Shown here in pieces: positions 31,504-56,598 of a stretch of DNA of 64,000 nucleotides (its first letter is position 1; each line of letters starts with the position of its first letter). The translations under genes were made by a program, and so were the position numbers. Location of the stretch: the IMG/VR virus record IMGVR_UViG_3300024322_000001, one strand, 5' to 3'. Origin of the DNA: a virus. Lineage: Duplodnaviria > Caudoviricetes. The notes below the pieces were generated by a model. The model saw only the letters and a program-made list of their open reading frames with translations, had not been told where the DNA came from and made no database searches.

Positions 31504-33915
31504 TTAATGTCCTTCTTTCCAGTTGTCTGCTATTTCAGGAGGAGCTTTAAGAGTTACTCCAGGTAACTTAGTAGTATTCTCCATTATTTCCTGTACTACA
31601 GGTGCAAATATTGCTGCTTGATCTTCTTTAACGTTTATAATTAATTGATCATGTACCTGTGCCTGCACACAAGCATCAATACCCATCTCCTTAGCTTTTC
31701 GATTTATTACTAAAGCTGCTCTATTCACTACAGCTGCTGCTAAAGACTGTAATTGAAAATTAAGACAGTTATTTAACCCATTACGGTAATCTCTATAAGC
31801 TTGAGTAACCTGGTCTCTAGGTGATATCGTTTTTACTATTTCACCGTTCTTCTTTACGTATTTAGGAGATAGCTGAGTCTCGAGCTGCTTTCTAAATCTC
31901 CAATCCATCATTCTGTCTCCTACTTTTTCAAAGAGATTTTTAACTTTAGGTAAATGCCTTACTCTACCTACGTAGTTTTTTATGTAACCGTAATCTTTTA
32001 CTTGACGTCTAGATTCTTCTCGCCACTCTTTAAGTTGAGGAAAACCATCTAAGTAACCTTTTACAAGACTTTCAGCAGTTTTTTGATCAACACCTAAGGT
32101 CATTTTTAATGCATAAGCTTCCATACCGTATGCAATTCCTAACGAATAAGCTTTAGCCTTATTACGTGCTGGTGCATCTAATTTCTTGAGGTAGTTATCT
32201 GCTTTTTTATCTGCGGATACTCCATTCGGAAATCTGCTTTTTTGATCCTCTAATTTTTCAGTCTTTATAGCAACAGTGGAATAGAAGTCCCAACCTTTAT
32301 TAAAGATTTCTTGCAAAGCAACATCTCCAGTTACAGATGCAAAGCAATGAGGCTCCAAAGATTCGTAATCAGCATCGATTACTTTCCTACCTTTTCCTGC
32401 AGTTAAGAAAGCACGTACTATATTTACGTACTTCATAATAACTGGAGCATCTTCTCCATCTTCTAGAGGTTTAGGTAGTTGCTGAGCATCTGAACCGTAT
32501 CTGCCTGATACTGTACCGTTCTGCTTAAAGTAGAAGTAGTATCTACCGTCCTCATGACGGTCTCTAAATCTATCTACATAGGTAGATTTAATCTTTAAAA
32601 GTTTATTGTAGATACGTAAATTCTCAGCCCAAGGATACTCTTTTGCTAAGGTTTTTACCATATCCATATCAAACTTAGCTCTACCAGATTTAGTATTAGC
32701 ACCTGCTACTTTAGGTTCAATTCCCATATAACCGAAGACTATTTCACCCAAGTGTTTCTTAGACTGAATGTTAATATAATCTCCATCATTAGACTCTTTC
32801 CACATTGACATAGAAATACGTGCTTTTTCAACATCCTCTAGAAGGGATTCGTCTCCGGTTATCAGGAATTGCTTGACTGCTTCCTCTTTTTCATTAGAAG
32901 GTTCATACGCTTCAATGTTCTTTTGAGTAAGGGAGTACTTACCTGTCTTTTCACTTTTCGGTAGTGCAATAGAATATCGCTGGATTAGGTTTTGAGCCCA
33001 GTTACCTTTGTGAGATACTGGATAGTTAGTCATAGCTGTAGCAACTATCCACTCCTTTACTTCAGGAATAGCAATCAGAGATTTCATTACAATCTCTTTA
33101 TTCTTTTTCTGATCTTCTACTATTTCATTATGGATCTTTTCTAGTAGTTCCATATCTAAATCAACTCCGTATGCTTCCATAGGAACTGTTACTTCTCTGT
33201 ATATAGGCATTACCTCTTCTTCAAAAAAGAAATCCCATAATCCTTCATCTTTTAGTTTACCTAAGTATAGATTACATATACGTAAAGTTAAATCGGTATC
33301 TGCAGATGCATACTTAGATAGTATTTCTAAATCTGCTTTATATATCTGAAAGCTATCCTTGGTAACTGATCCTCCGTTACTTTTAATACTCTCTTTAAGT
33401 TCTATTTGCTCTTCGTTAGCTGCTTTTTCTACATCTAAACCTAAAGCTTCTTGATTCATTATAGCAATAGATTTTAATCCAAAAGGATTACCAAACCCAA
33501 ATGCTCCTTCTTCGTATACCGTATGAACTAGTAAACCTGTATCCACCCATACCGAAGGAAGTAAGTCTACATCAAAGTAATTCTTAATAAACTGAACGTC
33601 AAAGGAAGCATTATGAAATACTAATTTCTTTCCTATAAGAAGTTTAAGTAAGTTTTTAGATATAACCTCTGTCGATTGATCGTTAATCTCTTGAAGTACT
33701 AATTCATCTCTTTCGTAATCAAATACTAAAGTAGGTAGGTAGAAACCTATACCTTCATCTCCGGATACAGACCAACCAATTATTTTATCTTTACGAGGAT
33801 TCAATCCAGTAGTTTCAGTATCGACTGCAATTACATCTGAATCTAAGATATGCTGATGGAGTAGCATTAAAGTTTCCTCATCTTGAACCGTATAATACTT
33901 TTTTTCTAATTTCAT
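31504..33915 (-). CDS. polA: family A DNA polymerase with 3'-5' exonuclease
   Basis: Exo motifs VDTETTG, FHNASFD, YASAD; Pol motifs GTVSGR, DADYESLE, RNKAKAYSLGIAYG, QVHDQ. Confidence 0.93.
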   Translation of the reverse strand: MKLEKKYYTVQDEETLMLLHQHILDSDVIAVDTETTGLNPRKDKIIGWSVSGDEGIGFYLPTLVFDYERDELVLQEINDQSTEVISKNLLKLLIGKKLVFHNASFDVQFIKNYFDVDLLPSVWVDTGLLVHTVYEEGAFGFGNPFGLKSIAIMNQEALGLDVEKAANEEQIELKESIKSNGGSVTKDSFQIYKADLEILSKYASADTDLTLRICNLYLGKLKDEGLWDFFFEEEVMPIYREVTVPMEAYGVDLDMELLEKIHNEIVEDQKKNKEIVMKSLIAIPEVKEWIVATAMTNYPVSHKGNWAQNLIQRYSIALPKSEKTGKYSLTQKNIEAYEPSNEKEEAVKQFLITGDESLLEDVEKARISMSMWKESNDGDYINIQSKKHLGEIVFGYMGIEPKVAGANTKSGRAKFDMDMVKTLAKEYPWAENLRIYNKLLKIKSTYVDRFRDRHEDGRYYFYFKQNGTVSGRYGSDAQQLPKPLEDGEDAPVIMKYVNIVRAFLTAGKGRKVIDADYESLEPHCFASVTGDVALQEIFNKGWDFYSTVAIKTEKLEDQKSRFPNGVSADKKADNYLKKLDAPARNKAKAYSLGIAYGMEAYALKMTLGVDQKTAESLVKGYLDGFPQLKEWREESRRQVKDYGYIKNYVGRVRHLPKVKNLFEKVGDRMMDWRFRKQLETQLSPKYVKKNGEIVKTISPRDQVTQAYRDYRNGLNNCLNFQLQSLAAAVVNRAALVINRKAKEMGIDACVQAQVHDQLIINVKEDQAAIFAPVVQEIMENTTKLPGVTLKAPPEIADNWKEGH

Positions 33916-34215: not shown

Positions 34216-34241
34216 AACCTTTGTTTTATATTAATATACGA

Positions 34242-34829
34242 TTAATTTTCTTTTCTACCAAACATAAACGTGTTTATATTCTTTAATTCTGCTTCAATAT
34301 GATTTATTCCTGCTTTTCCACAACCAGATAAAGGGATTACGGTTAAATGTACTCTACCGCTATACCATTTTGAAAGTTTTAAACAAGTATTCTGGGCTTC
34401 AATTCCTAAAGTATTAGTAGATTTATATACATTTCTACCAATCAAATGTTGACCTATTCTCTGCTGTCCGTTACCTAATTTAGAACCAATATACATTACA
34501 TCGGCTACTGAATGGTTAATTCTTAAACCAGGAGTAGTACCAAATCCTTTTTTAATTACAGAATGATTTTCAATATCTTCTCTTGTAAGTTTATCTGCTG
34601 CTTCAAAGATATAAACAATAGGAGTTTTAGTACCTACCTTTTCTTCAAATCTATTATAAAATTTTATAAATTTTTCTGGGTTATCAGCTAGTTCTTTTGG
34701 ACTGATATACCTCCAATGTATGGGGTCGTATTTTAGACTTTCGCTATAAAGTCTAGATGCACGTTTCTTATCTTCATAAGCATTTTTTGCTTGTGCATCT
34801 GCTACTTCAATTGATAATTCTTTAATCAT
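34242..34829 (-). CDS. GIY-YIG-like nuclease
   Basis: IVYIF...MYIGS...RIGQH...IEAEL motifs; promoter motif at 34860-34891. Confidence 0.5.
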   Translation of the reverse strand: MIKELSIEVADAQAKNAYEDKKRASRLYSESLKYDPIHWRYISPKELADNPEKFIKFYNRFEEKVGTKTPIVYIFEAADKLTREDIENHSVIKKGFGTTPGLRINHSVADVMYIGSKLGNGQQRIGQHLIGRNVYKSTNTLGIEAQNTCLKLSKWYSGRVHLTVIPLSGCGKAGINHIEAELKNINTFMFGRKEN

Positions 34830-34874
34830 ATAACCTTTATTTTCCCAATTATTTATATCTAAATATAAGAAATA

Positions 34875-35045
34875 TTATGCAGAAAACCAACTAATTAGTA
34901 TGTTAATTACTATAAAAAGGTTAGTTAAGACTGCTTGAATAACTATAAATGTTCTAAACCAAGCAATCTTATCCGCCTCTTTATTATCTCCTACTTTCTC
35001 TCCTAACGCTTTTGCCCAAAGTCGCCACCATTTAGTATTCGCCAT
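34875..35045 (-). CDS. small membrane protein (56 aa)
   Basis: Own translation MANTKWWRLWAKALGEKVGDNKEADKIAWFRTFIVIQAVLTNLFIVINILISWFSA. Confidence 0.7.
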   Translation of the reverse strand: MANTKWWRLWAKALGEKVGDNKEADKIAWFRTFIVIQAVLTNLFIVINILISWFSA

Positions 35046-35304
35046 ATAAATCGAACTTCATGGGTTCTTCAGGTTCTACCTCTATTTCGTGCTTCTTAAC
35101 AGCATATAACTTTCCAGCCAAGGGAGCTAATCTGTATTCTCCTTTAAATTTAGTTTTTCTCATATACATTGTTAATGCCATTACTAAACCTTCTATAGTA
35201 GAGCCTTCATCGATAACTAGTTCCCAATTGTCTCCCGGTGGTACCCTCAAGGCAATGAGTTCGTTTTCTTCTTCTATTAATGTTTCAATTGCTTCTTTTG
35301 CCAT
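35032..35304 (-). CDS. hypothetical protein
   Basis: 90-aa ORF within the operon. Confidence 0.65.
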   Translation of the reverse strand: MAKEAIETLIEEENELIALRVPPGDNWELVIDEGSTIEGLVMALTMYMRKTKFKGEYRLAPLAGKLYAVKKHEIEVEPEEPMKFDLYGEY

Positions 35305-35494
35305 TAAAATATTCTTTTAAAAATTCTTCTCTATACAACATTACTTTACCTTTATAAGCTTTATTGCTTACGAACCTAGTATTTACAGGTTCTTTTGCTG
35401 ATTTAGCAGCTTTATAAACTTCTTCTCCAAGCTTTATACCTGCTGCATATCCTAAATGATCGTATAAGGATACTGAAGCTTGTTCTTTTATCAT
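35285..35494 (-). CDS. hypothetical protein
   Basis: 69-aa ORF coupled to queF (SLYDHLG...YKGKVMLY). Confidence 0.65.
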   Translation of the reverse strand: MIKEQASVSLYDHLGYAAGIKLGEEVYKAAKSAKEPVNTRFVSNKAYKGKVMLYREEFLKEYFNGKRSN

Positions 35495-36405
35495 TACTGT
35501 CTAAGAGTTTTAGAAATTCTAAAATCTGTGTCTGTAAAGAAATCTGGTATAAATCTCGAATGGGTAGCTCTAATAGGATTAATATCTAAACCACCTCTTC
35601 TAGTATATAGACAAGCAACCATTAAATCATCAGGTTTATACGCATCCATTAAATGCTTAAATACCATTTCACATATTTCCTCATGAAAATGGCTTACCGT
35701 TCTATGAGATACAATATACTTAGCTAACGAAGCTACATCAGGTACATCTCTACCGTTAATTCTTATAAATACATCTCCCCAATCTGGTTGATTAGTAACC
35801 CTACAGTTAGATCTAAGTAAATTTGATTTTAACTTAACCTCGATAGGATCGTCTGAGTTATCTTCAACTGTTAGTTGATCTGAATCTGATTTAAATGCGG
35901 TAAAGTCTATTTCATCTAAATCTACTATATCACCTAAATCTGTATATCCTTCAAAAGATAATTCTTTGCCATCATCTAAATCAGTGTAAAAACTCACAGT
36001 AGTATTAGTTTCAAGTAACTTATCTAAATCAGCTTTTACCCTTCCCTCAATCTCTAAAATACATTCTACAGCTGTATCTCCTAATCTAGTCATATTAAAA
36101 GAATTTAAATATAGCTTAATAGATTTAGATTCCACGTGATATTCAGAATCTGAAGGGCATACTATTTTTAACATACCTGCTACAGGTAATCCTTTACTAG
36201 TAATAGCCGAAACTTCGTAACAGTTCCAGGTATCTACTCCAACAAAGTCTTTATCTGTCAAACCGTAACCTTCTCTATTTAAGTATCGAGGTACTTTAAC
36301 TAATAATTCTGGAGCGTAGGTATCTTTATACCCGTCTCCTCCTACTTTTCCTAAATGTTTAGACGCTATGTCTACTACTTCTTGATAATTTTTAACTTCT
36401 GCCAT
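35494..36405 (-). CDS. queF: NADPH-dependent preQ0 reductase (bimodular QueF)
   Basis: ESKSIKLYLNSF, LRSNCRVTNQPDWG, FHEEICE and YTRRGGLDINP motifs. Confidence 0.93.
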   Translation of the reverse strand: MAEVKNYQEVVDIASKHLGKVGGDGYKDTYAPELLVKVPRYLNREGYGLTDKDFVGVDTWNCYEVSAITSKGLPVAGMLKIVCPSDSEYHVESKSIKLYLNSFNMTRLGDTAVECILEIEGRVKADLDKLLETNTTVSFYTDLDDGKELSFEGYTDLGDIVDLDEIDFTAFKSDSDQLTVEDNSDDPIEVKLKSNLLRSNCRVTNQPDWGDVFIRINGRDVPDVASLAKYIVSHRTVSHFHEEICEMVFKHLMDAYKPDDLMVACLYTRRGGLDINPIRATHSRFIPDFFTDTDFRISKTLRQ

Positions 36406-36410
36406 TTTTT

Positions 36411-37016
36411 TTATTCTTTAATATAATCAATCCAATTAGTTCCTTTTGTATCTCTATTAGGAAATACAAATTTTCGTTTAATATCGCCAATAGTAATAGT
36501 CTTAATAAAACTAGAAGGTACCGTAGCACCAGTTCTTAATACTTCTGACTCGTCTGTAAATACTAACTCCACTCTTACATGTATATCAGTATTAAAAAAT
36601 TTAGCTGCATCTCTTTCAAATGCTTCTAATCTACTCCACTGTCCCCTATTTAACCCTTCGTGCTGTAATGCAGAATTAAAGTAAGAAAACGTGCTTCGTA
36701 AGGATTCTTCAGTACAGCTAAAAGAAGCTGCAGGAGCAAGGTGTCCTTTATCCCAAATATTGTTTTTATAGTCCTCATTATCGGATGTATCATAACCTTC
36801 CGGAATCCAAAAATCCATTCCATGTCTAGATTCCTTACCGTTAGGGCAAGTTATAGTATACTCCACCCATAATGGCTGTTGTAGTTTTTGATCGTACTCT
36901 ACTTTAAATGTTTCAGTTTCTACTATCTGTGCATTTAACGTTGATGTTACAAATATTGTTATAAAAAATATTATTGCAAATAATAATAATTTTTCTGAAG
37001 ATTCTAATTTATTCAT
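36411..37016 (-). CDS. exported DNA/RNA non-specific endonuclease (NucA/Serratia type)
   Basis: Signal peptide (NA-Q); WDKGHLAPAA and N..LQ...LNRGQW..LE motifs. Confidence 0.88.
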   Translation of the reverse strand: MNKLESSEKLLLFAIIFFITIFVTSTLNAQIVETETFKVEYDQKLQQPLWVEYTITCPNGKESRHGMDFWIPEGYDTSDNEDYKNNIWDKGHLAPAASFSCTEESLRSTFSYFNSALQHEGLNRGQWSRLEAFERDAAKFFNTDIHVRVELVFTDESEVLRTGATVPSSFIKTITIGDIKRKFVFPNRDTKGTNWIDYIKE

Positions 37017-37531
37017 TTTATAAATTCCATTATTTGTTCTACTCTTTGCATAGGAGAACCAGTTATAGTGAGATAAGGCTGACGTACACCTTCTAACACT
37101 GCTTGAAACTCATCATCTACTTCTTTTCTCCATTCTTCACTTATACTTCTTACTCCATCATCTACAGAATCAAATTCAATAGGAAAGTAAATATAATGAG
37201 TATATTCATTTTTTACCCTATTCCAAGTATCTTCTATATAGCTGTAAGTATGTGAAGTTACTCCTTTCATAAACTTAGTATAAACTACCACATCCATATA
37301 ACATCTATCTAATACTAAGTTATAAGGTTGAAGTAAAGCTTCTAAATGAAAGCTACTAATAGCTAACTGAGTAGCACAAGTACCTTCTTCGTTGATAGGA
37401 AATCCATAACTACCAACAGTTCTAGTAGATTCGTTTACGAATTCATATTTAGGTAATTTATTTTTAAGTAGTTCATAAACAGTAGTCTTACCTGTACTAC
37501 TTGCTCCTACTAATGCTATTCTTGTTATCAT
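37013..37531 (-). CDS. P-loop nucleotide kinase (AAA_28/NadR-like)
   Basis: GASSTGKTT, LDRCYMD and DDGVR motifs. Confidence 0.8.
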   Translation of the reverse strand: MITRIALVGASSTGKTTVYELLKNKLPKYEFVNESTRTVGSYGFPINEEGTCATQLAISSFHLEALLQPYNLVLDRCYMDVVVYTKFMKGVTSHTYSYIEDTWNRVKNEYTHYIYFPIEFDSVDDGVRSISEEWRKEVDDEFQAVLEGVRQPYLTITGSPMQRVEQIMEFIK

Positions 37532-37676
37532 AAAACCTATTTAATGTATTATACATACCTGCTATTCCAAAGTCAGCACCATATTTTTTATTTTGATCTA
37601 AAAAAAACATCATTAATCTTTGAAATGAATTACCTTCACTTTTTCTTACTAAATAAAATTCTTTATCTATATTCAT
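37497..37676 (-). CDS. small hypothetical protein (59 aa)
   Basis: Own translation MNIDKEFYLVRKSEGNSFQRLMMFFLD...; fills the gap. Confidence 0.5.
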   Translation of the reverse strand: MNIDKEFYLVRKSEGNSFQRLMMFFLDQNKKYGADFGIAGMYNTLNRFYDNKNSISRSK

Positions 37677-37679
37677 TTT

Positions 37680-38222
37680 CTATAAAATTTGTCTCAAAAA
37701 ATTGCACCACATATACAAGCTTCTATCTCTTAATATACGAAATAAATCATCTAATTCCAACTGAAAAGTATTAAATTTTTCTTCAGCAATAATTCTTCCT
37801 TCATCAACCTCAGCTACTACTTTATGCAATACTGCACCTGCTGTAGGATATTTACCTTCTTTAATACCTTCGAAAGCTCTTACTTGAGGATCTTTACCTT
37901 TCAGTTCTGGATATTCAGTTATGAGCCCTGGATGCCCATTATAGATAAGGTATTTTCTACATATAGAAGGAGGCATAACTCTTAACCACCCGTGTAAAGT
38001 AACTAAAGCATTATCTTCTAACACTACATCATAATCCTCTACTGATGGTTTATTCGGCAGGAAAATAATATCCATATCGAGTAATTCATCATTTATTTTT
38101 CTTAAATGCTCAGGTCTTTGATTAGTAATTATTTTATCAGGCCATCTACCAAATGCCTTTGCTATATCTACTATTTCAGTCCCTGTCTGACTAAAGAATG
38201 CTATCCAAAGTTTGTCTCCCAT
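37680..38222 (-). CDS. dpdN: PurN-like formyltransferase, probable preQ1 formyltransferase
   Basis: NGHPGLI..YPELKG, AGAVLHKV and VDEGRII motifs; overlaps the dpdA-like gene. Confidence 0.75.
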   Translation of the reverse strand: MGDKLWIAFFSQTGTEIVDIAKAFGRWPDKIITNQRPEHLRKINDELLDMDIIFLPNKPSVEDYDVVLEDNALVTLHGWLRVMPPSICRKYLIYNGHPGLITEYPELKGKDPQVRAFEGIKEGKYPTAGAVLHKVVAEVDEGRIIAEEKFNTFQLELDDLFRILRDRSLYMWCNFLRQIL

Positions 38223-39018
38223 TTGTAAACCATCTAAATTTTTGTATATTATTTTTAATTGTACCTAATTGCTCTATTGATATATCAGAGTTAATAAGTT
38301 CATGTAATTTTTGTCTCTCTTTAGACCATAATCCGTCTGATCTATATGTTATATTTTTAATACCGTGAACTACAGGATTTGAAGTATCTAAAGAGTATAT
38401 CCAGTCGTAATCAGAGTGCTTATAAAAACTAAATTCTTGAGGAAGCCCACAGCCGAGGAGATGATGAGGTTTAGTTTGATTAATTACTCCATCTCTAAGT
38501 AAGTCTCCTAGTAGCTTAACACGTCCTAGCATCCAACTAACATACTTGTTAGCATGAGGAACTGACTGTGTGTAGTACGAGTAATCAAAAGAAATAGCTA
38601 TCATATCTACATCTGCTGATTTATTCATATAGTTGTAGCAATCTACAATTTCATCATAGGATTTACCTTGTACTACACCTATTTTACCGCTTCCCTTATA
38701 TCCATACCCTTTATTAATCCAATCCTCCATCTGATCGCATGTTTTTTGAGCATCTTCCAAAGCATCTGGAACTATATACCAGGAAGGTTTAAGTTCGTTA
38801 ACCCATCTATTAAATTTATCTGCATCGAAAGCTTCTTCTAATTCAAAAATAGAATTATCTAAAATAACCTCTCTACCTTTACTTACTGCTTTTTTAAATT
38901 GAGCCAAGTATTCTTCATCTTCTTCAAATAAATGTACTAAAGCGTAATCGTAGTCTGTATACTTTTGAACTTCATCAAAAATACTTTTAGGACTTTCGTG
39001 TGCAATTTTTATATTCAT
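38191..39018 (-). CDS. dpdA: TGT-fold 7-deazaguanine transglycosylase (DpdA-like)
   Basis: ILDNSIFE, IVPD, GVVQG, HHLLG and SLDTSNP motifs; lies within the que gene cluster. Confidence 0.78.
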   Translation of the reverse strand: MNIKIAHESPKSIFDEVQKYTDYDYALVHLFEEDEEYLAQFKKAVSKGREVILDNSIFELEEAFDADKFNRWVNELKPSWYIVPDALEDAQKTCDQMEDWINKGYGYKGSGKIGVVQGKSYDEIVDCYNYMNKSADVDMIAISFDYSYYTQSVPHANKYVSWMLGRVKLLGDLLRDGVINQTKPHHLLGCGLPQEFSFYKHSDYDWIYSLDTSNPVVHGIKNITYRSDGLWSKERQKLHELINSDISIEQLGTIKNNIQKFRWFTNGRQTLDSIL

Positions 39019-39036
39019 ATAACTTATTTTTGATTT

Positions 39037-39237
39037 TTACTCTTTACCTTCCTTAAACGTATCGTCTAAAATATTTGAAATATATCTTACATAGCCGTCT
39101 AATTTATTCATTTCCGTATTAAGTTTTTTATCATACGTGAATACTTCTTTGACAGCCTGTTGAGCAATTTCTAGCGGCACATATTCTTTTCCGTCTACTG
39201 TTATAATGTAATCCTCTAAATTAGTACCCTTACTCAT
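39037..39237 (-). CDS. hypothetical protein
   Basis: 66-aa ORF within the operon. Confidence 0.6.
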   Translation of the reverse strand: MSKGTNLEDYIITVDGKEYVPLEIAQQAVKEVFTYDKKLNTEMNKLDGYVRYISNILDDTFKEGKE

Positions 39238-39733
39238 TGAAAAACTTTTTTAAATTAGGTCTAAAGTAATTAACTGATTTCATTACTTTTCTATCTCTTG
39301 TTCTGTATACAATATACAAGTCTTCTACTTTTTCATAATGACATTCTTCATTATAAGCTTTAGACCTGACGGCGACAGTTTCTTTTGCTTCTTCTTCAGT
39401 TTTACAAGCTTTAGACATATTAGAAGCCTGTACCTCTTGATATGCTGGCCATATCTTATCCTTAAGGCCGTGTAACATAGTACCGTTCCCAAGGGAAACA
39501 TAAGCAATGTCGCACAAAGCGTCCAAAACTTCAACGATGTCTCCGTTCTCACACGCTTCTCTATATTCTTCAAGCTCTTCGAGTATAAAGTCATATACGA
39601 ACTGCCACTCTTTCTTCTCTGGTATAGTCGGTTCATAGTTATTTGGTTTGCCAAATGTGGCATTAAATTCTTCTACTTCAGAAACAAATGGTACGTAATC
39701 TGTTTCTCGGAATAATGATAGTTGTTTACCCAT
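39230..39733 (-). CDS. MazG-like nucleoside-triphosphate pyrophosphohydrolase
   Basis: ILEELEEY...EVLDALCDIAYV...VQASNMSK...KVMK motifs. Confidence 0.85.
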   Translation of the reverse strand: MGKQLSLFRETDYVPFVSEVEEFNATFGKPNNYEPTIPEKKEWQFVYDFILEELEEYREACENGDIVEVLDALCDIAYVSLGNGTMLHGLKDKIWPAYQEVQASNMSKACKTEEEAKETVAVRSKAYNEECHYEKVEDLYIVYRTRDRKVMKSVNYFRPNLKKFFNE

Positions 39734-40169
39734 TTTTACTCATTTTTTTCCACCAATCTGTTTTATTGATGAGTTGTTTTTCTTTTCTGTCTACTAAATC
39801 GTCTAAATGATCGTATATACCACGATCCCAATCGTCTTGATATCTAATGATATCATCTTCTCCGAAATAATCTCCGGTTTGCACTTCTATAAATTGTACT
39901 GGTTTATCAGTTTTATTCCAAGCTCTATGTTTACTGCAGCAAGGTATGGTTATAGATTCACCAGGATTATCTAGAGAGTATTCATCACCATCTCTAATGA
40001 CAGTTAACTCTCCACTTACTAGAGTCCATTGCTCTTGTCTCTTCTCATGAGACTGATAGGATAATCTCTTACCTGGAGCTACGGTGATTAGTTTAACTTT
40101 AGTAAAGTCAGTATCTAATAGTACATCGTAGCAACCCCAAGGTCTTTCATCGTGTTCTAATGATTGCAT
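39726..40169 (-). CDS. cupin, type II mannose-6-phosphate isomerase C-terminal-like
   Basis: ERPWG, RLSYQSH.KR.EQW and IEVQTGDYFGEDDIIR motifs. Confidence 0.85.
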   Translation of the reverse strand: MQSLEHDERPWGCYDVLLDTDFTKVKLITVAPGKRLSYQSHEKRQEQWTLVSGELTVIRDGDEYSLDNPGESITIPCCSKHRAWNKTDKPVQFIEVQTGDYFGEDDIIRYQDDWDRGIYDHLDDLVDRKEKQLINKTDWWKKMSKNG

Positions 40170-40870
40170 TTCTCTGCTAATTCTATATTCTTATAAAACT
40201 CAGCTTTAGCTGATGGTTCATCTAAAAAGGCTCCAGTTAGTTTAGCTGTTTGCATTGATGCTCCTCCATGCTTAACTCCTCTACAGGAAACACAAGCGTG
40301 AGTTGCATTAACTTGAACTGCTACTCCTAAATTGCCTTCACATATCTTATCTACTGCATTATGTATAGCTACAGTTAACTGCTCTTGAATAGCTCCTCTT
40401 CTACCGAATTGTTCTACTATTCTATTTAGTTTAGATAGTCCTACTACCTTACCATCTTCTGAAGCTATATAAGCAATACTTACTGTGCCTCTAATAGCTT
40501 GATGATGATGCGAACACATAGACGTTACTGGTATGTTACTCTCTTGTACGATACCGTCATACCCGTCTGAAGGAAAAGCTGTAATCTTATCTAAAGGGCT
40601 ATATCTTCCAGCCCATAAATCGTTAACATATGCTTTAGCTACCCTAAATGGTGTATCTGCAGAGTTAGGATCTGCTGCATAATCACATCCTAAAGCGGTA
40701 AGGAACTCTGCATAAGCCTTTGCTGCTCTTTCTATAATTACTTGTTTTTCATGATCAGTAAGTCTTGCTTCTGGTCCTTCCAGCTTTTGTTTTTCTGCTA
40801 ATTGAGTTGAAATACCGTTAGCGAAACCGGCTTTTACTAATTCTGTTCCTTTTATAAACTTTTTTGGCAT
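40157..40870 (-). CDS. folE: GTP cyclohydrolase I
   Basis: DTPFRVAK, SMCSHH, GLSKLNR, IQEQLT and HACVSCRGV motifs. Confidence 0.96.
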   Translation of the reverse strand: MPKKFIKGTELVKAGFANGISTQLAEKQKLEGPEARLTDHEKQVIIERAAKAYAEFLTALGCDYAADPNSADTPFRVAKAYVNDLWAGRYSPLDKITAFPSDGYDGIVQESNIPVTSMCSHHHQAIRGTVSIAYIASEDGKVVGLSKLNRIVEQFGRRGAIQEQLTVAIHNAVDKICEGNLGVAVQVNATHACVSCRGVKHGGASMQTAKLTGAFLDEPSAKAEFYKNIELAEKCNH

Positions 40871-40878
40871 AATATAAT

Positions 40879-40910
40879 TTATGTTTTTATTGAGGTTCTA
40901 CGACTCATTA
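40879..40910 (-). ncRNA. candidate preQ1-I-like riboswitch aptamer (folE leader)
   Basis: UGAG-UCGUAGAAC-CUCA-AUAAAAA-C-AUA between the promoter and the folE ATG. Confidence 0.65.
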
Positions 40911-40917
40911 CTATAAC

Positions 40918-40949
40918 TTAATATAAGAACTTTTATTCATTAATCCAAA
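40918..40949 (-). promoter_or_regulatory. Bacteroidota-type promoter for the folE-dpdA-dpdN-queF run
   Basis: TTTG-N20-TATATTAA. Confidence 0.72.
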
Positions 40950-41359
40950 TAATCTTGAATTGTTTTTGAATCTTTTTTCTCCCATGGGTACACGATCCAA
41001 TCAGTAGTTTCTAACCAATTGCAGTAGAAGTCTGGTTTTGTTACTGTAGTGTTTCTTACGTCTAATGTAGCTGTTGTGTATCCCTGTTTCTTAAAGTGTT
41101 TGAGGGTCTGTCCAGAGTCGGATATATCATCCACTATTAATATTTTTTTCTTATCTATATTAAGGTTAAACTCCTCTAACTTTTCTAGATGGTCTATAGT
41201 TATGTGCTTTATCCCCAGTTTATGAGACATAATGACTGCTACTACTAAACCTCCTCTCGGTATACCTACTACGTAATCTACATTTTTAATTTTATTTGCT
41301 AATTTTTCTACCTGGTGGTCTATATCGTTCCAGGTAACGAATACTTTTTTTGGAGTCAT
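40940..41359 (-). CDS. type I phosphoribosyltransferase (Gpt-like)
   Basis: GIPRGGL, ILIVDDISDSGQTL and WIVYPWE motifs. Confidence 0.9.
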   Translation of the reverse strand: MTPKKVFVTWNDIDHQVEKLANKIKNVDYVVGIPRGGLVVAVIMSHKLGIKHITIDHLEKLEEFNLNIDKKKILIVDDISDSGQTLKHFKKQGYTTATLDVRNTTVTKPDFYCNWLETTDWIVYPWEKKDSKTIQDYLD

Positions 41360-41362
41360 ATC

Positions 41363-41665
41363 TTACTTTAATATTAACGTTGATAAATGTACTATGTTAT
41401 ACTTAATTGCATAGTCAACAACTTCTTGTCCTGTTTCTTCACTTACGATTCTTATATCTTTGAAGTCAAGACCTTCTTCGTTAACATATTCTACTAATTC
41501 CCTAACAGTACAGCTATGATTTTCCAAGTTCATCAAATCTAAGGTCTGTATGGAGTCCATTGTAATTAATTCTAAGGTATTCCCAGATAGTTTATAATCC
41601 CAAATAGGACTATTTAAAAAGTACACCTTACGGTCTAAATCTTCTAAAATATTACTATAATTCAT
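41363..41665 (-). CDS. hypothetical protein
   Basis: 100-aa ORF within the operon. Confidence 0.6.
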   Translation of the reverse strand: MNYSNILEDLDRKVYFLNSPIWDYKLSGNTLELITMDSIQTLDLMNLENHSCTVRELVEYVNEEGLDFKDIRIVSEETGQEVVDYAIKYNIVHLSTLILK

Positions 41666-41789
41666 TTATAAAAATTTTTAGTTTATCTATTAATACTAGT
41701 ACATCGTCTGGTTCCATAGTAATAGCACAGCATGTATTAATATTTTCTTCTACTTCTTCTAATATCTCTAAAGCTTCGTCTTTAGTCAT
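41655..41789 (-). CDS. small hypothetical protein (44 aa)
   Basis: Own translation MTKDEALEILEEVEENINTCCAITMEPDDVLVLIDKLKIFINEL; coupled to the queE stop. Confidence 0.55.
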   Translation of the reverse strand: MTKDEALEILEEVEENINTCCAITMEPDDVLVLIDKLKIFINEL

Positions 41790-42577
41790 TATACTTCACG
41801 TTGATCTTCAAAAGCAATGATATGCGGTCTCCAAGTCATTCTATAACCATTATCTCTAACCCAATCAAATAATACCGGATAAGATTTAAATAATGCTTCC
41901 CTTGAATCTCCTGCAGGCATAAACCATACCTTACTTTTAGGTATTTTTAACCTGTAAATACAGGTCATTATTTCCTCTAAAGCTTTTTCATCTTTACCAT
42001 CCCATACAGGTTTTAAATGATAGTCAGAGTGGTAATTGATACTTTCTTCTATAGCATCATAATTAAGTCTAAACTTATTATGCTGCTTTATCATTCTTTC
42101 GTCAGTAATCCCTCCTTGAGGAGTCTCTACGCCAATGACTGGAACAGAATTAGAAAACTTAGGGCTAATAGATAGCAGATTAATAGGGTAATCTGTGGGT
42201 AGAAAGTGACTACCTTCAGTTTCGATAGTAATAAATATATTATTCTCATTTGCAAAGTGTGTTAATTCGTTTACCAAAGCTGGATGCATTGTAGGAGAAC
42301 CTCCTGTTAGCATCATTTCTTTAATATGGGGGTTATCTTTATACTTTTGTATAATATCGTTAAAATTAAATTGACCTTTTTCTGGATGGATTGAAGTATA
42401 CCAGCTATCACACCAGCCTCCTTCTCCAAAGTAACATCTATGGGTACAGCCAGTAGTTCTAATTACTATAGTTGGGTACCCTGCTCTTGAACCTTCTGAC
42501 TGTACTGCAGTATAAACTTCTACAATCGGTAAGTTCTTTTCGTAATCTTCTATTCTTTTTAATTGTTTATGCGACAT
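41789..42577 (-). CDS. queE: 7-carboxy-7-deazaguanine synthase (radical SAM)
   Basis: VQSEG, RTTGCTHRC...WCDS, LTGG, IETEGS and SISPK motifs. Confidence 0.9.
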   Translation of the reverse strand: MSHKQLKRIEDYEKNLPIVEVYTAVQSEGSRAGYPTIVIRTTGCTHRCYFGEGGWCDSWYTSIHPEKGQFNFNDIIQKYKDNPHIKEMMLTGGSPTMHPALVNELTHFANENNIFITIETEGSHFLPTDYPINLLSISPKFSNSVPVIGVETPQGGITDERMIKQHNKFRLNYDAIEESINYHSDYHLKPVWDGKDEKALEEIMTCIYRLKIPKSKVWFMPAGDSREALFKSYPVLFDWVRDNGYRMTWRPHIIAFEDQREV

Positions 42578-43031
42578 AATAAGCTGCGTTTTTTCCGTGT
42601 TCCATAAATTTTACTTTCGTCACCTTAACTCTACCTTCTGTTTCTTCTTCTACAAAATCATTTAATTTATTAAAAATATATTCTGCAAATTTTTCTGCTC
42701 CGGTAGCAGGTATAACTCTGATTTGTGCTACTTCTGATAATCCCATATGTAGAAATTTATCTAAATAGGGGTCGTCCTGAGCAACTATGAAGGTATGGTC
42801 GAACATATAATCCATCCATTGCTTAGGAGATAAGCCATCTATTTTAGTCTTAGCTCTTTTCATACCTCCGAAGTCCCATACCCAGTTTCTGTAGTCTAAT
42901 TCTCCTTCAAAATATACTTTAAATGCTACTCCGTAGCCGTGAACAAACCTACAATGTGTATCTTCTGCTTTCCATTGACGGAACACAGTAGAGAACCCGT
43001 CGAATACTTTACTTGATTGAAATTTTCCCAT
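42567..43031 (-). CDS. queD: 6-carboxy-5,6,7,8-tetrahydropterin synthase
   Basis: HCRFVHGY, WDFG, FDH and GAE motifs. Confidence 0.9.
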   Translation of the reverse strand: MGKFQSSKVFDGFSTVFRQWKAEDTHCRFVHGYGVAFKVYFEGELDYRNWVWDFGGMKRAKTKIDGLSPKQWMDYMFDHTFIVAQDDPYLDKFLHMGLSEVAQIRVIPATGAEKFAEYIFNKLNDFVEEETEGRVKVTKVKFMEHGKNAAYYVA

Positions 43032-43040
43032 ATCTTTAAT

Positions 43041-43274
43041 TTAAACTAATTCTTCCCCTATTCCAACTATTTCTGCTAAAAATAGACCTATAAAGCCTAA
43101 TTCAAACATACCAAAGAAGCCAAAAGCACATGCTCCTAGCCTAATAGCTGATTTTAAAAATGAAATTCTTTGGTGAAGTTTCGGATCAGGTATTTTCTGT
43201 CCGTCGATCTCAATAGAACCTTTTTGTTTTTTAAACTCCGTATCTTTATACAGAGTATTTGCTTTTTTACTCAT
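43041..43274 (-). CDS. small membrane protein, first gene of the queD-queE operon
   Basis: Hydrophobic C-terminal half ending LAEIVGIGEELV. Confidence 0.7.
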   Translation of the reverse strand: MSKKANTLYKDTEFKKQKGSIEIDGQKIPDPKLHQRISFLKSAIRLGACAFGFFGMFELGFIGLFLAEIVGIGEELV

Positions 43275-43276
43275 AT

Positions 43277-43308
43277 TGGTGTTTTTAAAGTGGTGCTACG
43301 ACACTATA
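43277..43308 (-). ncRNA. candidate preQ1-I-like riboswitch aptamer (queD-queE operon leader)
   Basis: AGUG-UCGUAGCAC-CACU-UUAAAAA-C-ACC; same architecture as the folE leader. Confidence 0.6.
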
Positions 43309-43322
43309 GTCTTATATTACTT

Positions 43323-43354
43323 ATAATATAATAAAAAAAGGGATAGTAAGCAAC
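43323..43354 (-). promoter_or_regulatory. Bacteroidota-type promoter for the queD-queE-PRTase run
   Basis: GTTG-N20-TATATTAT. Confidence 0.7.
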
Positions 43355-43363
43355 TATCCCCTT
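43333..43363 (-). terminator. intrinsic terminator after the fibre-like genes (overlaps the next promoter)
   Basis: GGGATAGT-loop-ACTATCCC followed by a U run. Confidence 0.8.
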
Positions 43364-43382
43364 AGTTTTTTTTAAATTATTT

Positions 43383-45131: not shown

Positions 45132-45149
45132 CTTATATAAATATGTCTA

Positions 45150-46589: not shown

Positions 46590-46660
46590 GTATACACTTA
46601 TATTGTATAAATAGCTGAATAATCTGATTTAGTAGTGATTTATTAATCAGTAAAATTTAG

Positions 46661-46734
46661 TGGAGAATATCGGAGTCGAACCGATGACCTCCTGCGTGCA
46701 AGGCAGGCGCTCTAGCCAGCTGAGCTAATCCCCC
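46661..46734 (-). tRNA. tRNA-Ala(UGC)
   Basis: GGGGGATTAGCTCAGCTGGCTAGAGCGCCTGCCTTGCACGCAGGAGGTCATCGGTTCGACTCCGATATTCTCCA: full cloverleaf with G3:U70; CCA is not encoded. Confidence 0.97.
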
Positions 46735-46740
46735 TACCTG

Positions 46741-46910: not shown

Positions 46911-47699
46911 TTATACATAGTCAGCAAGTACTTTTTCAACATGAGTTTTTGCTACTTCGTAATCAACCACTCCAGTTTCATCCTCATACTGTACAGGATC
47001 TTTTCTCCCCAAAGCAATAAAAGCCTCAATCCTCTCAACACTAGAAGCAGACTTATAATCGGAATTTCCACTAGGATAGGGTTTGTACGATGTATTAGTT
47101 CTCTTATAAACTTCATCAAAATCAATACCTAAAATTTCACATAATTTTTCTCCATCTTGTAGAATACCAAATTTATCAGTATCTAAATAAGGTGTAAAGT
47201 AACCTACTCTATCTGCATCCCAGTTTCCAATTCTAAAAGCTGCATCATCTGCATCTCTAAATTCTTGTCTACAATCAGGATAAACTGCATGATCACCAGC
47301 ATGAATACCTAAAGCAATATCACAAACGTCTTCTGTTCTATTTGCTACAGATAATGCAACTGCTTGAGTAATTGAAGCAAACATTTTGTTTCTATTAGGA
47401 ACAACTGTTTCTTTCATATTATCTTGCTCATAATGTCCTTCTGGTACATCATCCCCACCTGTAACTAAAGCTGAGTCTAATAAATCTACTAGACCATCAA
47501 GTTTAATTTGACGATAATTTATTTTGTGTCCTTTACTTGCAAGGTAATCAATTAATGATTGAGCTCTCTCTAGCTCTACTCTGTGTTTTTGACCGTAATC
47601 AAATGAGATACCAGTTACGGTATCATACTTCTCGATAGCTCTTAACAATAGGGTGCTACTATCCATTCCACCACTTAAACTTACTACACAATGTGCCAT
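46911..47699 (-). CDS. queC: 7-cyano-7-deazaguanine synthase
   Basis: SLSGGMDS, FDYGQKH, VVPNRN and YPDCR motifs. Confidence 0.95.
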   Translation of the reverse strand: MAHCVVSLSGGMDSSTLLLRAIEKYDTVTGISFDYGQKHRVELERAQSLIDYLASKGHKINYRQIKLDGLVDLLDSALVTGGDDVPEGHYEQDNMKETVVPNRNKMFASITQAVALSVANRTEDVCDIALGIHAGDHAVYPDCRQEFRDADDAAFRIGNWDADRVGYFTPYLDTDKFGILQDGEKLCEILGIDFDEVYKRTNTSYKPYPSGNSDYKSASSVERIEAFIALGRKDPVQYEDETGVVDYEVAKTHVEKVLADYV

Positions 47700-48053: not shown

Positions 48054-48311
48054 TTAATTTAGTATTAATTCTTTTAATTTATCTTCTTTTACTAGTCCAA
48101 CTTCTTTGAGTACATTATCACCTTTTACTACAACGGTAGTAGGTATTGACTGTATTCTGTATTTAGCTGCTAGTCCTTGGGTATCGTTGTCAATATTTAC
48201 TTCTATAAATTCAACTTCCTTACTTAATTCTTCAGATACCTTATCCCAGGTTTTACCGTATATTTTGCATGGACCGCACCAGGTAGCGTAAAACTTAATA
48301 GCTTTTGTCAT
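48054..48311 (-). CDS. trxA: thioredoxin
   Basis: WCGPC and IQSIPT motifs. Confidence 0.92.
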   Translation of the reverse strand: MTKAIKFYATWCGPCKIYGKTWDKVSEELSKEVEFIEVNIDNDTQGLAAKYRIQSIPTTVVVKGDNVLKEVGLVKEDKLKELILN

Positions 48312-53896: not shown

Positions 53897-55609
53897 TTAG
53901 CCATCACAGGATAAGCAATCCTCAGATGTCCTAGAACCTATATCTCCATTAATTACCGAATCGGTTCGCAAGTAATAGAGTGTTTTTACACCGAATCTCC
54001 ATGCTGCTTGGTGTACTTCATTAATAAACTTTGGGCTATCTGTTGGATCAAATGCTAAATTTAATGACTGTGTTTGGTCAATGTATTTCTGCCTTGCTCC
54101 TGCTTGTTCAACTAAAGCCAATTGATTTATTTCTGCAAATGTAAGGAATATAGGTTTATCTTCTGCAGGCATTATGTCTTCGGGTAAATTTGCTATAGAA
54201 CCTCTATCTCTCATAATCTGGTCCCATACTTCATCAGTATTTGATCCTGTTTCGTCTAAATAACTCTCTAACGCAGGGTTTTTTCTTATAAAAGTTCCTT
54301 TTGCAGAGTTAAATGTATATATGTTAGCCGGTACTGGTTCGATTCCTGCGGATACCCCTCCTGATATCGTACTATTGGATACTGTTGGGGCGATAGCAAG
54401 TAAATGACTGTTTCTCATGCCTGTTCCTTTACACCATAGCGGCTCACCGTATTCATCTGCTAATTTACGTGATGCATTTTCTGCTTTTTGTTTTATATCG
54501 GAGAATATCTGGTGAGTAAATGAGGTTGCAGCAATAGAATTAAAAGGAACTCTTTCGTTCTGTAAAAATGTATGCCATCCTAGTACTCCTAACCCGATTG
54601 CTCTTCCTTTTTTTGCTGATCTATGAGATCTGATTAAAGAATCCCTTCCAGATGTTTTTGCTAAAAACTCTTCTAGTACTCCGTCCAGAAAATAAATGGC
54701 TGTTTCTACTAAATCTGTATTTTTCCATTCATGCCATTTAGTTAAGTTTACAGAAGATAGACAACATATGAAAGAATGTTCTTCATCTGTGTGAAGCGTA
54801 ATTTCTGAGCATATATTAGTCATCGTAACGTCTAAGTTATTCTTTTTATATGCAGGAGGATTAGCATTATTGACAGTATCCTTGAACATAAGGTATGGTT
54901 CTCCTGTTTCAACTCTAGATTTAAGTATTTTCACCCATAGTTCCATAGCCTCAGGGTCTCTATGCTCTAATTTTTGCATAAAGGCATCATCCACTACAAC
55001 ACATTGATGTAAGTTAAGACACTGTCTATTAGGATCTCCTTTAGGTCTTCTTATCTCTAAATATTCCGAAATATCTGGATGATTTATATCTAAATTAACA
55101 GAAGCTGCTCCTCTCCTCACAGCTCCTTGGTTAGTAGCTATAATAGTAGAATCATAAATCTTAGCCCAAGGAACAATACCCTCTGACTGACCTACTTCAT
55201 TACCGATTTTTTCTCCTCTACCTCTAACCTTAGATAGACCAATACCTACACCACCGCCTAAGGATGTCAATCTCATTAATTCAGCATTAGTTAATCCAAT
55301 ACCGCGTATCGAGTCGGGTGTATCGATACCAAAACATGAAATTGGCAATCCTTTGTCAGTGCCGGTATTTGAAAGTACCGGTGAGGCTAAGTTCAACCAT
55401 CCTTTCCACATATACCTAAAGAATTTATTCTCTAGATCTGGACGGTCTAATCTTTTTGCTATAGTAGAAGCTACTCTTCTATATGCAGATTTTACGTTTT
55501 CTCCTTGTCCTAAGTATCCTTTAGATATTGTTGCTATTGATACTTCATTCATCCATTCTGGGTAATCTTTTCCGGCTACCCATTCAGTTGTGTCCACTAT
55601 TAAACTCAT
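53897..55609 (-). CDS. nrdA: class I ribonucleotide reductase alpha subunit (no ATP cone)
   Basis: ISCF, NQGAVRRGA, TNICSEI, APTVSNS, KTLYY and C-terminal CLSCDG motifs. Confidence 0.95.
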   Translation of the reverse strand: MSLIVDTTEWVAGKDYPEWMNEVSIATISKGYLGQGENVKSAYRRVASTIAKRLDRPDLENKFFRYMWKGWLNLASPVLSNTGTDKGLPISCFGIDTPDSIRGIGLTNAELMRLTSLGGGVGIGLSKVRGRGEKIGNEVGQSEGIVPWAKIYDSTIIATNQGAVRRGAASVNLDINHPDISEYLEIRRPKGDPNRQCLNLHQCVVVDDAFMQKLEHRDPEAMELWVKILKSRVETGEPYLMFKDTVNNANPPAYKKNNLDVTMTNICSEITLHTDEEHSFICCLSSVNLTKWHEWKNTDLVETAIYFLDGVLEEFLAKTSGRDSLIRSHRSAKKGRAIGLGVLGWHTFLQNERVPFNSIAATSFTHQIFSDIKQKAENASRKLADEYGEPLWCKGTGMRNSHLLAIAPTVSNSTISGGVSAGIEPVPANIYTFNSAKGTFIRKNPALESYLDETGSNTDEVWDQIMRDRGSIANLPEDIMPAEDKPIFLTFAEINQLALVEQAGARQKYIDQTQSLNLAFDPTDSPKFINEVHQAAWRFGVKTLYYLRTDSVINGDIGSRTSEDCLSCDG

Positions 55610-55620: not shown

Positions 55621-56598
55621 TTAAAATGCTGTTGACCAATCTAAGTGCCCTTTAGCATAATTCGTAACTCTATTAGCGAAAAAGTCTGTTTGCTGTTTTC
55701 CTGCAATTACAGCGTCAAACCATTTCATTGTCTTTAATGCGCCTTTATCGATATCTTCTGCAGGGATTATAGGCTTTAATCCTAAATCGGCCATTTTTGT
55801 GTTTACTCTATGCTTAATGAAGTTTTTTAATTCTTCCTTACTTAAGTTATCTAGATCTCCCATTTCAAAAATCTTATCTATAAAATCAAACTCTAATTTT
55901 ACAGCACCATATGCAGCTTCTTCAATATCTTTTATAAGCTCCGGTGTCTTAAATTCTGGATGTTCTTTCATAAGAGTTCTAAATAACCAGCATCCTGCTT
56001 CTGAATGCAGTGATTCATCTCTTACAGACCATTCTACTATCTGTCCTACACCTTTAAGAAGGTTTCTCATTTTAAAAGACAGTAACACAGCAAAGGAACT
56101 AAACAAGTTAACTCCTTCTGTGAAAGCAGAAAATATAGCGAGAGAGACAGCTCTTTGATGCCAGTTAGGGGTACCGTCGTGATTGTCTCTAACTTCCATT
56201 AACGATTCTATCTTAGCCATCGTAGCTTCATCTTCTAAAAATTCAGCAAAGTTATCTAATCCTAATTGTTCGTTAAGAAGTGAATAAGCTTCAGCATGAA
56301 TAGTTTCTGAAGAGCCTAGTGTAGTACCCATCATAATAACTTCTGGTTTTCTAAACCATTTAGTAACTAATGTTGACCAGTAGTCGTTTACGATCGTTTC
56401 TGTCTGTGCAAATCCTTTTAGAATTCCTCCTACTACATTTTTTTCATGTGGCTTAAGGTTACTAGCCCAATCTGTAACGTCTTGTGCCATTGGTACTTCA
56501 GTATGTAACCAATGTGCTTGTTGTTGCTTTAACCAAAAATCATATGCTTTTGGATATTCAAATGGCTTGTAAACGATGCGTTCTTTTAAAAGGCTCAT
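55621..56598 (-). CDS. nrdB: class I ribonucleotide reductase beta subunit
   Basis: ETIHAEAY, EGVNLFSSF, RDESLH and DFF.NRVTNY motifs. Confidence 0.95.
   Translation of the reverse strand: MSLLKERIVYKPFEYPKAYDFWLKQQQAHWLHTEVPMAQDVTDWASNLKPHEKNVVGGILKGFAQTETIVNDYWSTLVTKWFRKPEVIMMGTTLGSSETIHAEAYSLLNEQLGLDNFAEFLEDEATMAKIESLMEVRDNHDGTPNWHQRAVSLAIFSAFTEGVNLFSSFAVLLSFKMRNLLKGVGQIVEWSVRDESLHSEAGCWLFRTLMKEHPEFKTPELIKDIEEAAYGAVKLEFDFIDKIFEMGDLDNLSKEELKNFIKHRVNTKMADLGLKPIIPAEDIDKGALKTMKWFDAVIAGKQQTDFFANRVTNYAKGHLDWSTAF

Follow-up and report, generated by a model that had tools for sequence, protein, structure and literature searches.

The 64,000-nucleotide stretch analysed here (the window; IMG/VR virus record IMGVR_UViG_3300024322_000001, Duplodnaviria, Caudoviricetes) is a portion of a 116-kb viral contig that is about 70% complete, and it carries a 7-deazaguanine gene cluster centred on DpdA3, a transglycosylase of the tRNA-guanine transglycosylase (TGT) fold. 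Interleaved with this cluster are genes for a P-loop kinase, a MazG-type pyrophosphohydrolase and a phosphoribosyltransferase (PRTase), and the association of these three genes with DpdA3 clusters is more than chance. On our analysis the chances are even that they are working parts of a DpdA3-type system that operates on the nucleotide pool before replication. The more specific proposal is slightly less probable: that DpdA3 is a nucleotide or nucleoside transglycosylase, exchanging guanine for a 7-deazaguanine on dGMP or deoxyguanosine (dG), and not a DNA modifier, and that, in partnership with a dGTP pyrophosphatase and a kinase dedicated to the task, it builds fully substituted genomes by way of a modified deoxynucleoside triphosphate (dNTP) pool. 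The source of the window is an uncultured relative of Flavobacterium phage immuto, and its cluster is a new uncultured addition to the known immuto-type DpdA3/fdPreQ1 system. In immuto DNA every G is replaced by fdPreQ1, in phiST by dDG and in CP220 by dADG; the replacement is 100% in all three and all encode DpdA3 (PMC10516641). The route by which phages reach such complete replacement of guanine is unsettled.

A sequence-only reading of the window had placed genes for the PRTase, kinase, MazG, FolE, DpdA, DpdN and QueF in one cluster with nrdAB and trxA nearby, and Pfam, PHROG and PDB-sequence searches found each of them at its named place on the minus strand, which carries nearly all genes of the window (G+C content about 33%). 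The central genes are as follows.

35494..36405, minus strand: QueF, the preQ0 reductase that gives the preQ1 base (PF14819, E 2e-27; PF14489, E 1e-17)
37013..37531, minus strand: AAA_28 P-loop nucleoside or nucleotide kinase, 172 amino acids (PF13521, E 1.5e-17), homologue of CP220 gp057
37680..38222, minus strand: DpdN-like formyltransferase (PF00551, E 2.3e-5; 54% identity to immuto DpdN)
38191..39018, minus strand: DpdA3-type transglycosylase, a minimal TGT-fold TIM barrel of 275 amino acids (homology to immuto DpdA and CP220 gp056; AlphaFold2 model)
39230..39733, minus strand: all-alpha nucleoside triphosphate pyrophosphohydrolase of the MazG/PRA-PH type, 167 amino acids (PF01503, E 1.3e-11; phrog_671, ‘nucleotide pyrophosphohydrolase’, E 8e-30)
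40157..40870, minus strand: FolE, GTP cyclohydrolase I, the first step from GTP to 7-deazaguanines (PF01227, E 1.2e-41)
40940..41359, minus strand: Gpt-like 6-oxopurine PRTase, 139 amino acids (PF00156, E 5.6e-11), last in the queD-queE group and adjoining folE

The association rests on comparisons at several distances. Close relatives were 80 IMG/VR loci in which DpdA3 has 51-89% identity to the window protein; the 38 with at least 6 kb on each side were counted. The family hidden Markov models of the analysis were built from the immuto clade. DpdN, QueF and FolE occur in all 38 of these full-flank loci and the kinase in 37, while the MazG/PRA-PH gene is kept in 30 (some DpdA3 clades being without it) and the PRTase in 28. 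The core order is FolE-DpdA3-DpdN-kinase-QueF. Phage immuto has the same order as the window, including genes annotated as ‘thymidylate kinase’, ‘nucleoside triphosphate pyrophosphohydrolase’ and ‘phosphoribosyltransferase’; the kinases of the two are 65% identical, the MazG proteins 80%, the DpdA proteins 75% (over 97% of the length) and the PRTases 43%. In a more distant subgroup, with DpdA3 about 40% identical, ten loci have overlapping DpdA3, kinase and QueF genes (by 11-23 nucleotides) and no DpdN, and in one further locus the kinase gene overlaps the start of DpdA3. The kinase stands adjacent to DpdA3 or overlaps it in loci L137-L146 though no PRTase is present there. One further locus search, with P0263 as query, gave no match in viral contigs.

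In or beside DpdA3 and DpdA3-like clusters, P-loop kinases recur in six phage lineages and belong to the AAA_28, AAA_18, AAA_33 and DNMK families, with one further unclassified Walker-A protein. In CP220, gp056 (DpdA3; 41.5-41.9% identity over 94% between the window protein and gp056 and its relatives) is directly followed by gp057, the homologue of the window kinase. In phiST an AAA_18 P-loop gene adjoins DpdA3, MazG lies two genes off and a PRTase is found elsewhere in the genome. An AAA_18 gene lies 3 nucleotides upstream of a DpdA3-like gene in Chryseobacterium phage MA9V-3 (L118:8980-9774), and in Bacillus phage BSTP12 the Walker-A protein gene overlaps the DpdA3-like gene (L117:4896-5684, annotated NadR). 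Kinases of differing families near DpdA3 are what one would expect to see where the function is required and not one particular gene. The DpdA3-like genes beside que genes and a P-loop gene in MA9V-3, BSTP12 and Weizmannia phage Youna2 are weakly similar (24-28% identity), and Bacillus phage copies carry conflicting GenBank labels (NadR, polynucleotide kinase, integrase). Brevundimonas phage vB_BpoS-MaInes combines in one block QueE, a DpdA3-like gene, PolA, NrdBA, a deoxynucleoside monophosphate (dNMP) kinase of the T4 gp1 type (DNMK), FolE and XPRT. The DpdA3-like product there, MAINES_00850 (L115:673-1473), is a 266-residue unannotated hypothetical protein beside QueE and a distant homologue by hhalign (probability 96.8%, E 3e-10); from these genes, MaInes and StAshley probably have unreported 7-deazaguanine DNA.

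The DpdA1 phages served as a control. Seventeen 9g-type loci, a set dominated by 9g-like phages, carry FolE, QueE, QueD and QueC in 15-17 cases; the kinase occurs in none of them and MazG and the PRTase in one each. A Pfam tally of 107 open reading frames (ORFs) from seven diverse DpdA1 loci gave AAA_28 in one locus, and the 25 families listed included no Pribosyltran and no PRA-PH. In the corresponding tally of 11 divergent DpdA3 loci, AAA_28 appeared in 6, Pribosyltran and dUTPase in 4 each, DCD in 3 and PRA-PH in 2. The PRTase, too, is restricted: a tblastn search against 50,697 phage records found it in 11 (four of immuto, five of the phiST group and two Brevundimonas phages), and all 11 belong to phages with DpdA3 or a DpdA3-like gene and que genes, in three lineages.

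The window protein at 38191-39018 belongs to the DpdA3 subfamily and has a TGT-type TIM-barrel fold. Its AlphaFold2 model (predicted local distance difference test, pLDDT, 96.3) is a plain eight-stranded barrel without long insertions. Foldseek matched it to Zymomonas mobilis TGT (E 1e-8), and in the VIA comparison it aligned with the archaeosine TGT ArcTGT (Z 18.1, root-mean-square deviation 3.5 over 240 residues), with bDpdA (7ui4; Z 16.9, deviation 3.4, 235 of 413 residues aligned), with bacterial TGT (Z 16.1) and with Cap10 (Z 14.4). When the sequences of solved structures were searched with the DpdA3 profile, bDpdA was reached at E 1.3 only. Across 65 diverse family members D54 (LDNS), D85 (PDV) and D211 (DTSNP) are invariant and no cysteine is conserved. 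Matched by the order of motifs and not by residue-level superposition, these three would correspond to the general acid/base, base-binding and nucleophile aspartates of bDpdA (Asp95, Asp130 and Asp256).

DpdA3 is short: it has 275 residues where the bDpdA chain 7ui4_A has 413, and the two align in the barrel core only. In bDpdA the insertions Ins1 and Ins8 build the crescent-shaped DNA-binding surface, and an ATPase partner, DpdB, is required (PMC10164549). DpdA3, about 140 residues shorter, appears from its model to have no room for insertions of the Ins1/Ins8 kind; no ParB-type match, the type to which DpdB belongs, was found among the cluster proteins scanned, and the sole NTPase of the cluster has a nucleoside or nucleoside monophosphate kinase fold. 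The short model and the cluster without a ParB-like gene fit a non-DNA substrate, though they are no proof of one. Isoelectric point was dropped as a proxy for DNA binding because the values for DpdA3 (5.2; family median 5.4) and for 9g DpdA1 (5.6) are alike, and a predicted complex of DpdA3 with the kinase scored 0.19, which counts neither way. DpdA3 occurs naturally fused to DpdN (P0159 and P0213, 447 residues) and to QueF (P0272, P0273 and P0275, 531-568 residues). None of the fused forms examined joins DpdA3 to a kinase; besides DpdN and QueF, the partners are intein or homing-endonuclease elements and unknown domains. In the pair P0274/P0128 one DpdA3 is split by an intein/LAGLIDADG element and another has a NUMOD3 homing-endonuclease tail. 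The C-terminal domain of P0220 had looked by eye like an acetyltransferase of the GNAT family, a candidate that we dropped, as it has no Pfam match and no similarity to the L066 domain described below.

The kinase matches AAA_28 with 64.7 bits against a cut-off of 27 and has the Walker A motif GASSTGKT. The invariant residues G9, G14, K15, T16, D75, R76 and R128 represent the Walker A motif, a DR motif and the LID arginine. It found nothing significant among the sequences of solved structures. Its AlphaFold2 model (pLDDT 90.8), compared by VIA, was closest to the NadR ribosylnicotinamide kinase domain (Z 17.8 and 16.0), followed by human deoxyguanosine kinase (15.9), the Drosophila deoxynucleoside kinase (15.2) and thymidylate kinases (14.8). 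As judged from the modelled fold, the protein is a small-molecule nucleoside or nucleotide kinase, because it matches nucleoside and dNMP kinases, unlike a ParB-like DNA helper such as DpdB; the fold does not settle the choice between nucleoside and monophosphate. Our structure-based statements on both DpdA3 and the kinase rest on predicted models.

A possible lead comes from the relative L066 (IMGVR_UViG_3300024264_002661), a locus without DpdN in which the kinase (L066:6123-7079) carries at its C-terminus a fused domain of about 150 residues. This domain has a sub-threshold match to Acetyltransf_10, a GNAT family (E 5e-4), and its nearest named Atlas clusters are all GNATs. The fusion would connect amine acylation with a small-molecule kinase, and the locus may represent a variant of the system with acylated (for example acetyl) dPreQ1. 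If the domain replaces DpdN, then the amine would be acylated on a free nucleoside or nucleotide; we regard this as a lead and not as a result.

MazG (PF01503, 45.2 bits against a cut-off of 21.3) has a visible acidic metal-binding stretch, EELEE...E..D..D. The PRTase, judging by its sequence, is a Gpt/XGPRT-type 6-oxopurine enzyme with a type I domain, its best solved relatives being the Pyrococcus horikoshii purine PRTase 1vdm (E 1.2e-14), Sulfolobus GpT-1/2 and Escherichia coli XGPRT (E 3e-6). Its phosphoribosyl pyrophosphate (PRPP) motif is DDISDSGQT, and the pattern DDxxD[ST]GxT is invariant in all 52 homologues from DpdA3 loci. By established HGPRT chemistry the third aspartate of this motif acts at N7, the atom absent from 7-deaza bases. 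The gene adjoins folE in MaInes and L151 as it does in the window and in immuto. The sequence-only reading had offered two roles for this enzyme, loading of the deazaguanine base or salvage of released guanine. The second is the better supported: the PRTase keeps canonical purine chemistry and, with folE next to its gene in several lineages, salvage from guanine through GMP and GTP to FolE is favoured over deaza-base loading. In most relatives (L008-L035) the PRTase is only 35-44% identical to that of the window, against 70-95% for its neighbours, a few PRTases reaching 69-71%; this divergence would reflect either fast evolution or a swap by a second PRTase lineage.

The genes that would supply the base, the deoxynucleotides and the polymerase lie around the central cluster.

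31504..33915, minus strand: PolA, family A DNA polymerase with a 3'-5' exonuclease (PF00476, E 2.7e-53; PF01612, E 8.4e-11)
41789..42577, minus strand: QueE (radical SAM match; 83% identity to immuto QueE)
42567..43031, minus strand: QueD (PF01242, E 1.5e-14)
46911..47699, minus strand: QueC (PF06508, E 3e-37)
48054..48311, minus strand: thioredoxin, Trx (PF00085, E 3.5e-17)
53897..55609, minus strand: NrdA, class I ribonucleotide reductase (PF02867, E 8e-101)
55621..56598, minus strand: NrdB, class I ribonucleotide reductase (PF00268, E 7.5e-65)

In the route that we propose, the que enzymes convert GTP to preQ1, by the established pathway and with genes verified in the window. MazG would hydrolyse dGTP to dGMP, which would both starve the polymerase of dGTP and supply the acceptor, and DpdA3 would then swap guanine for the deazaguanine base on dGMP or deoxyguanosine. 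DpdN would formylate the aminomethyl group at the base or the nucleotide stage, and the AAA_28 kinase would rephosphorylate the modified (deoxy)nucleoside or nucleotide. A host nucleoside diphosphate (NDP) kinase would finish the triphosphate, from which the phage PolA would make fully substituted DNA. The PRTase would load no deaza base; it would instead convert the guanine, released one-for-one in the exchange, to GMP and so to GTP for FolE. Neither a canonical TGT (PF01702) nor an NDP kinase is encoded in the window's genome, immuto, CP220, phiST or MaInes. This scheme gives each cluster gene a role and has a tested parallel in the Z-genome phages. Of the earlier pre-replicative reading, the gene identities and their interleaving stood, and comparative genomics has strengthened the functional tie of the accessory genes to DpdA3 systems; the route itself is plausible by the Z-phage precedent, not proven.

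A number of points weigh against such a route. To our knowledge, the characterised TGT-family enzymes act on polynucleotides, the exception being Cap10, whose modification is on a protein in the solved complex. The exchange by DpdA3 on a nucleotide and the dGTP specificity of MazG are both predictions, and MazG found no match among the sequences of solved structures. Each of the three accessory genes is missing from some DpdA3 loci. Those with DpdA3 at 51-59% identity are mostly without MazG and PRTase within 8 kb, and seven of them are without the kinase, as are loci L149-L151; in the subgroup at about 40% identity, three loci have a PRTase (two of them also MazG) and all three are without the kinase. 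Phage CP220 has no PF00156 PRTase and no homologue of the window MazG. Its gp055 (HD plus P-loop) was considered as a dGTP hydrolase-kinase and dropped; we left it out of the evidence because the P-loop half resembles the polynucleotide kinase Pnkp1, and it may be unrelated. AAA_28 homologues occur in 89 Streptomyces phage records in which no deazaguanine genes were seen. Finally, the match that assigns the L066 domain to the GNATs does not reach Pfam's threshold.

The published view differs from ours as well. Because DpdA has now been found in every deazaguanine phage, Hutinet et al. (2023) proposed post-replicative insertion for all of them (PMC10516641). DpdA3 would then exchange G in finished DNA, the PRTase and kinase would recycle the released guanine to GMP, GDP and GTP for FolE, and MazG would balance or clean the pool. 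With respect to the window's system we consider this less likely than the pool route, but several points favour it: DpdA3 retains the TGT/DpdA fold with its three catalytic aspartates, the five genomes mentioned above have no other TGT-type gene, the canonical motif of the PRTase and its adjacency to folE fit salvage well, and the accessory genes are not universal. However, it is the kinase and not the PRTase that is most tightly tied to DpdA3, even where there is no PRTase (CP220 and L137-L146), and a pyrophosphatase converting dGTP to dGMP would have no obvious role. By its model DpdA3 is also without the extra length of bDpdA, roughly 140 residues, to which the insertions behind the DNA-binding surface belong. 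In DpdA1 phages the accessory genes are essentially absent, although these phages likewise release guanine and carry que genes; their DNA is modified to a lower level. DpdA3 did not work in an E. coli DNA-insertion assay, and an ADG nucleoside was seen in CP220-infected cells (both PMC10516641). That paper does not mention the kinase or the phosphoribosyltransferase. In 2019 the Campylobacter phages had been suggested to possess a machinery that provides their polymerase with a modified dGTP (as cited in PMC6884629); this idea was set aside in 2023 once DpdA3 had been found. In the later open literature we found no paper that settles the DpdA3 substrate.

Two further explanations dispense with a central role for DpdA3 on nucleotides or with any specific link at all. 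In one, the PRTase would join preQ1 or another deazaguanine to PRPP, the kinase would carry the product to the diphosphate and NrdAB would reduce it into the dNTP pool, leaving DpdA3 a minor task such as correcting residual G. In the biosynthesis of toyocamycin and tubercidin, purine-type PRTases attach deazaguanines to PRPP; the PRTase, kinase and NrdAB/Trx are all present in the window, and the PRTase is found only in deazaguanine phages with DpdA3 or a DpdA3-like gene. We nevertheless think this ribonucleotide route very unlikely: CP220 replaces all its G without a PRTase and many DpdA3 loci also do without one, the universal component is DpdA3, the invariant third aspartate corresponds by established HGPRT chemistry to a residue acting at N7, which the 7-deaza bases are missing, and the PRTase has diverged far more than its neighbours. 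Least probable of all is that these are ordinary phage nucleotide-metabolism genes, for example a ribosylnicotinamide kinase of NAD salvage and a house-cleaning MazG, that happen to lie in an early or DNA-metabolism region. The occurrence of AAA_28 kinases and MazG in many phages in which no deazaguanine genes were seen would agree with that, as would the kinase's top structural match to NadR and the fact that the single AAA_28 match in the DpdA1 tally came with a nicotinamide mononucleotide (NMN)-transporter match. Against coincidence stand the recurrence of differing kinase families beside DpdA3 in six lineages, the gene overlaps in some loci, the presence of the kinase in 37 of 38 relatives, the restriction of the PRTase to DpdA3(-like) phages, and the DpdA1 controls, from which the accessory genes are essentially absent.

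What the comparisons establish is that a small-molecule kinase, often with a dNTP pyrophosphatase and a PRTase, accompanies DpdA3 in unrelated lineages and does not accompany the low-efficiency DpdA1. Should DpdA3 indeed act on nucleotides, the TGT fold would gain an activity new to it, phages would have invented base exchange on dNMPs a second time and independently, and 7-deaza-dGTP analogues would become accessible by a practical enzymatic route. At E <= 1e-3 the DpdA3 family comprises 1,519 clusters when grouped at 50% identity and 4,684 when grouped at 90%, mostly unnamed, and many of the closest clusters come from ocean surveys, including Tara samples; the family is probably relevant to the resistance of marine phages against restriction.

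Three further ORFs lie within the cluster.

36411..37016, minus strand: DNA/RNA non-specific endonuclease, Endonuclease_NS (PF01223, E 4.3e-27)
39037..39237, minus strand: ORF of 66 amino acids between MazG and DpdA3, with no Pfam or PHROG match; immuto has a hypothetical gene at the same place
39726..40169, minus strand: cupin of the mannose-6-phosphate isomerase C-terminal type (PF01050, E 2.7e-27), an accessory gene in only 7 of the 38 related loci

The endonuclease, found in 19 of the 38 related loci at variable positions, has a hydrophobic, signal- or anchor-like N-terminus (LLLFAIIFFITIFVTSTLNAQ), and because it is probably exported we have not counted it in the intracellular route. A small ORF of about 55 codons lies in the gap of 148 nucleotides between dpdN and the kinase gene (37532-37679) and extends into the start of the latter; the immuto cluster has a small hypothetical gene of its own, located between dpdN and dpdA instead of between dpdN and the kinase. 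Between queD and queC (43383-46589) there are two large ORFs of 582 and 479 amino acids without a Pfam match, which have repeated segments in common (48-55% identity over stretches of 55-70 residues), and a tRNA gene (46661-46734, minus strand; Rfam, 66.8 bits) lies between the 479-residue ORF and queC. No Rfam match to a preQ1 riboswitch was obtained at E <= 1 in 34000-49000. A second, shorter ORF resembling family-A polymerases (61571-62896, 441 amino acids; PF00476, E 4.8e-11) is located about 28 kb from the main PolA.

The window is most like immuto, where the cluster has the same genes in the same order and the kinase, MazG and PRTase are among them; it differs in having the cupin gene and the nuclease with its putative export signal, and in a far more divergent PRTase (43%). 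With the bDpdA/DpdB system (7ui4) and with DpdA1/DpdA2, as in phage 9g, it has in common the TGT barrel, the three catalytic aspartates and the supply of the base by que genes. However, bDpdA is about 140 residues longer, including its DNA-binding insertions, and requires the ParB-like ATPase DpdB, while DpdA1 and DpdA2 modify 0.1-30% of G and the DpdA1 loci are without kinase, MazG and PRTase. The experimentally established hydroxymethylcytosine pathway of T4 offers the same triad as our proposal, namely a pyrophosphatase for the canonical dNTP (the dCTPase gp56), a maker of the modified dNMP (the dCMP hydroxymethylase gp42) and a phage dNMP kinase (gp1), the type of kinase that MaInes has as DNMK; the T4 chemistry is at C5 of a pyrimidine on the intact nucleotide, as opposed to the base exchange proposed here. 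In the Z-genome phages, DutZ breaks dATP and dGTP down to their monophosphates, and DmtZ takes the deoxyribose phosphate of dAMP and transfers it to the Z base (PMC12884076). DmtZ has a nucleoside deoxyribosyltransferase (NDT) fold where DpdA3 has that of TGT, its base is 2-aminoadenine and not a 7-deazaguanine, and the Z phages use host kinases where the window has a phage kinase of its own; the activities were tested there and are predicted here. What DutZ with DmtZ, or MazZ/DatZ with PurZ, would share with the route suggested for DpdA3 is its essential logic, in which the canonical dNTP is removed and the polymerase uses the modified one (PMC12884076).

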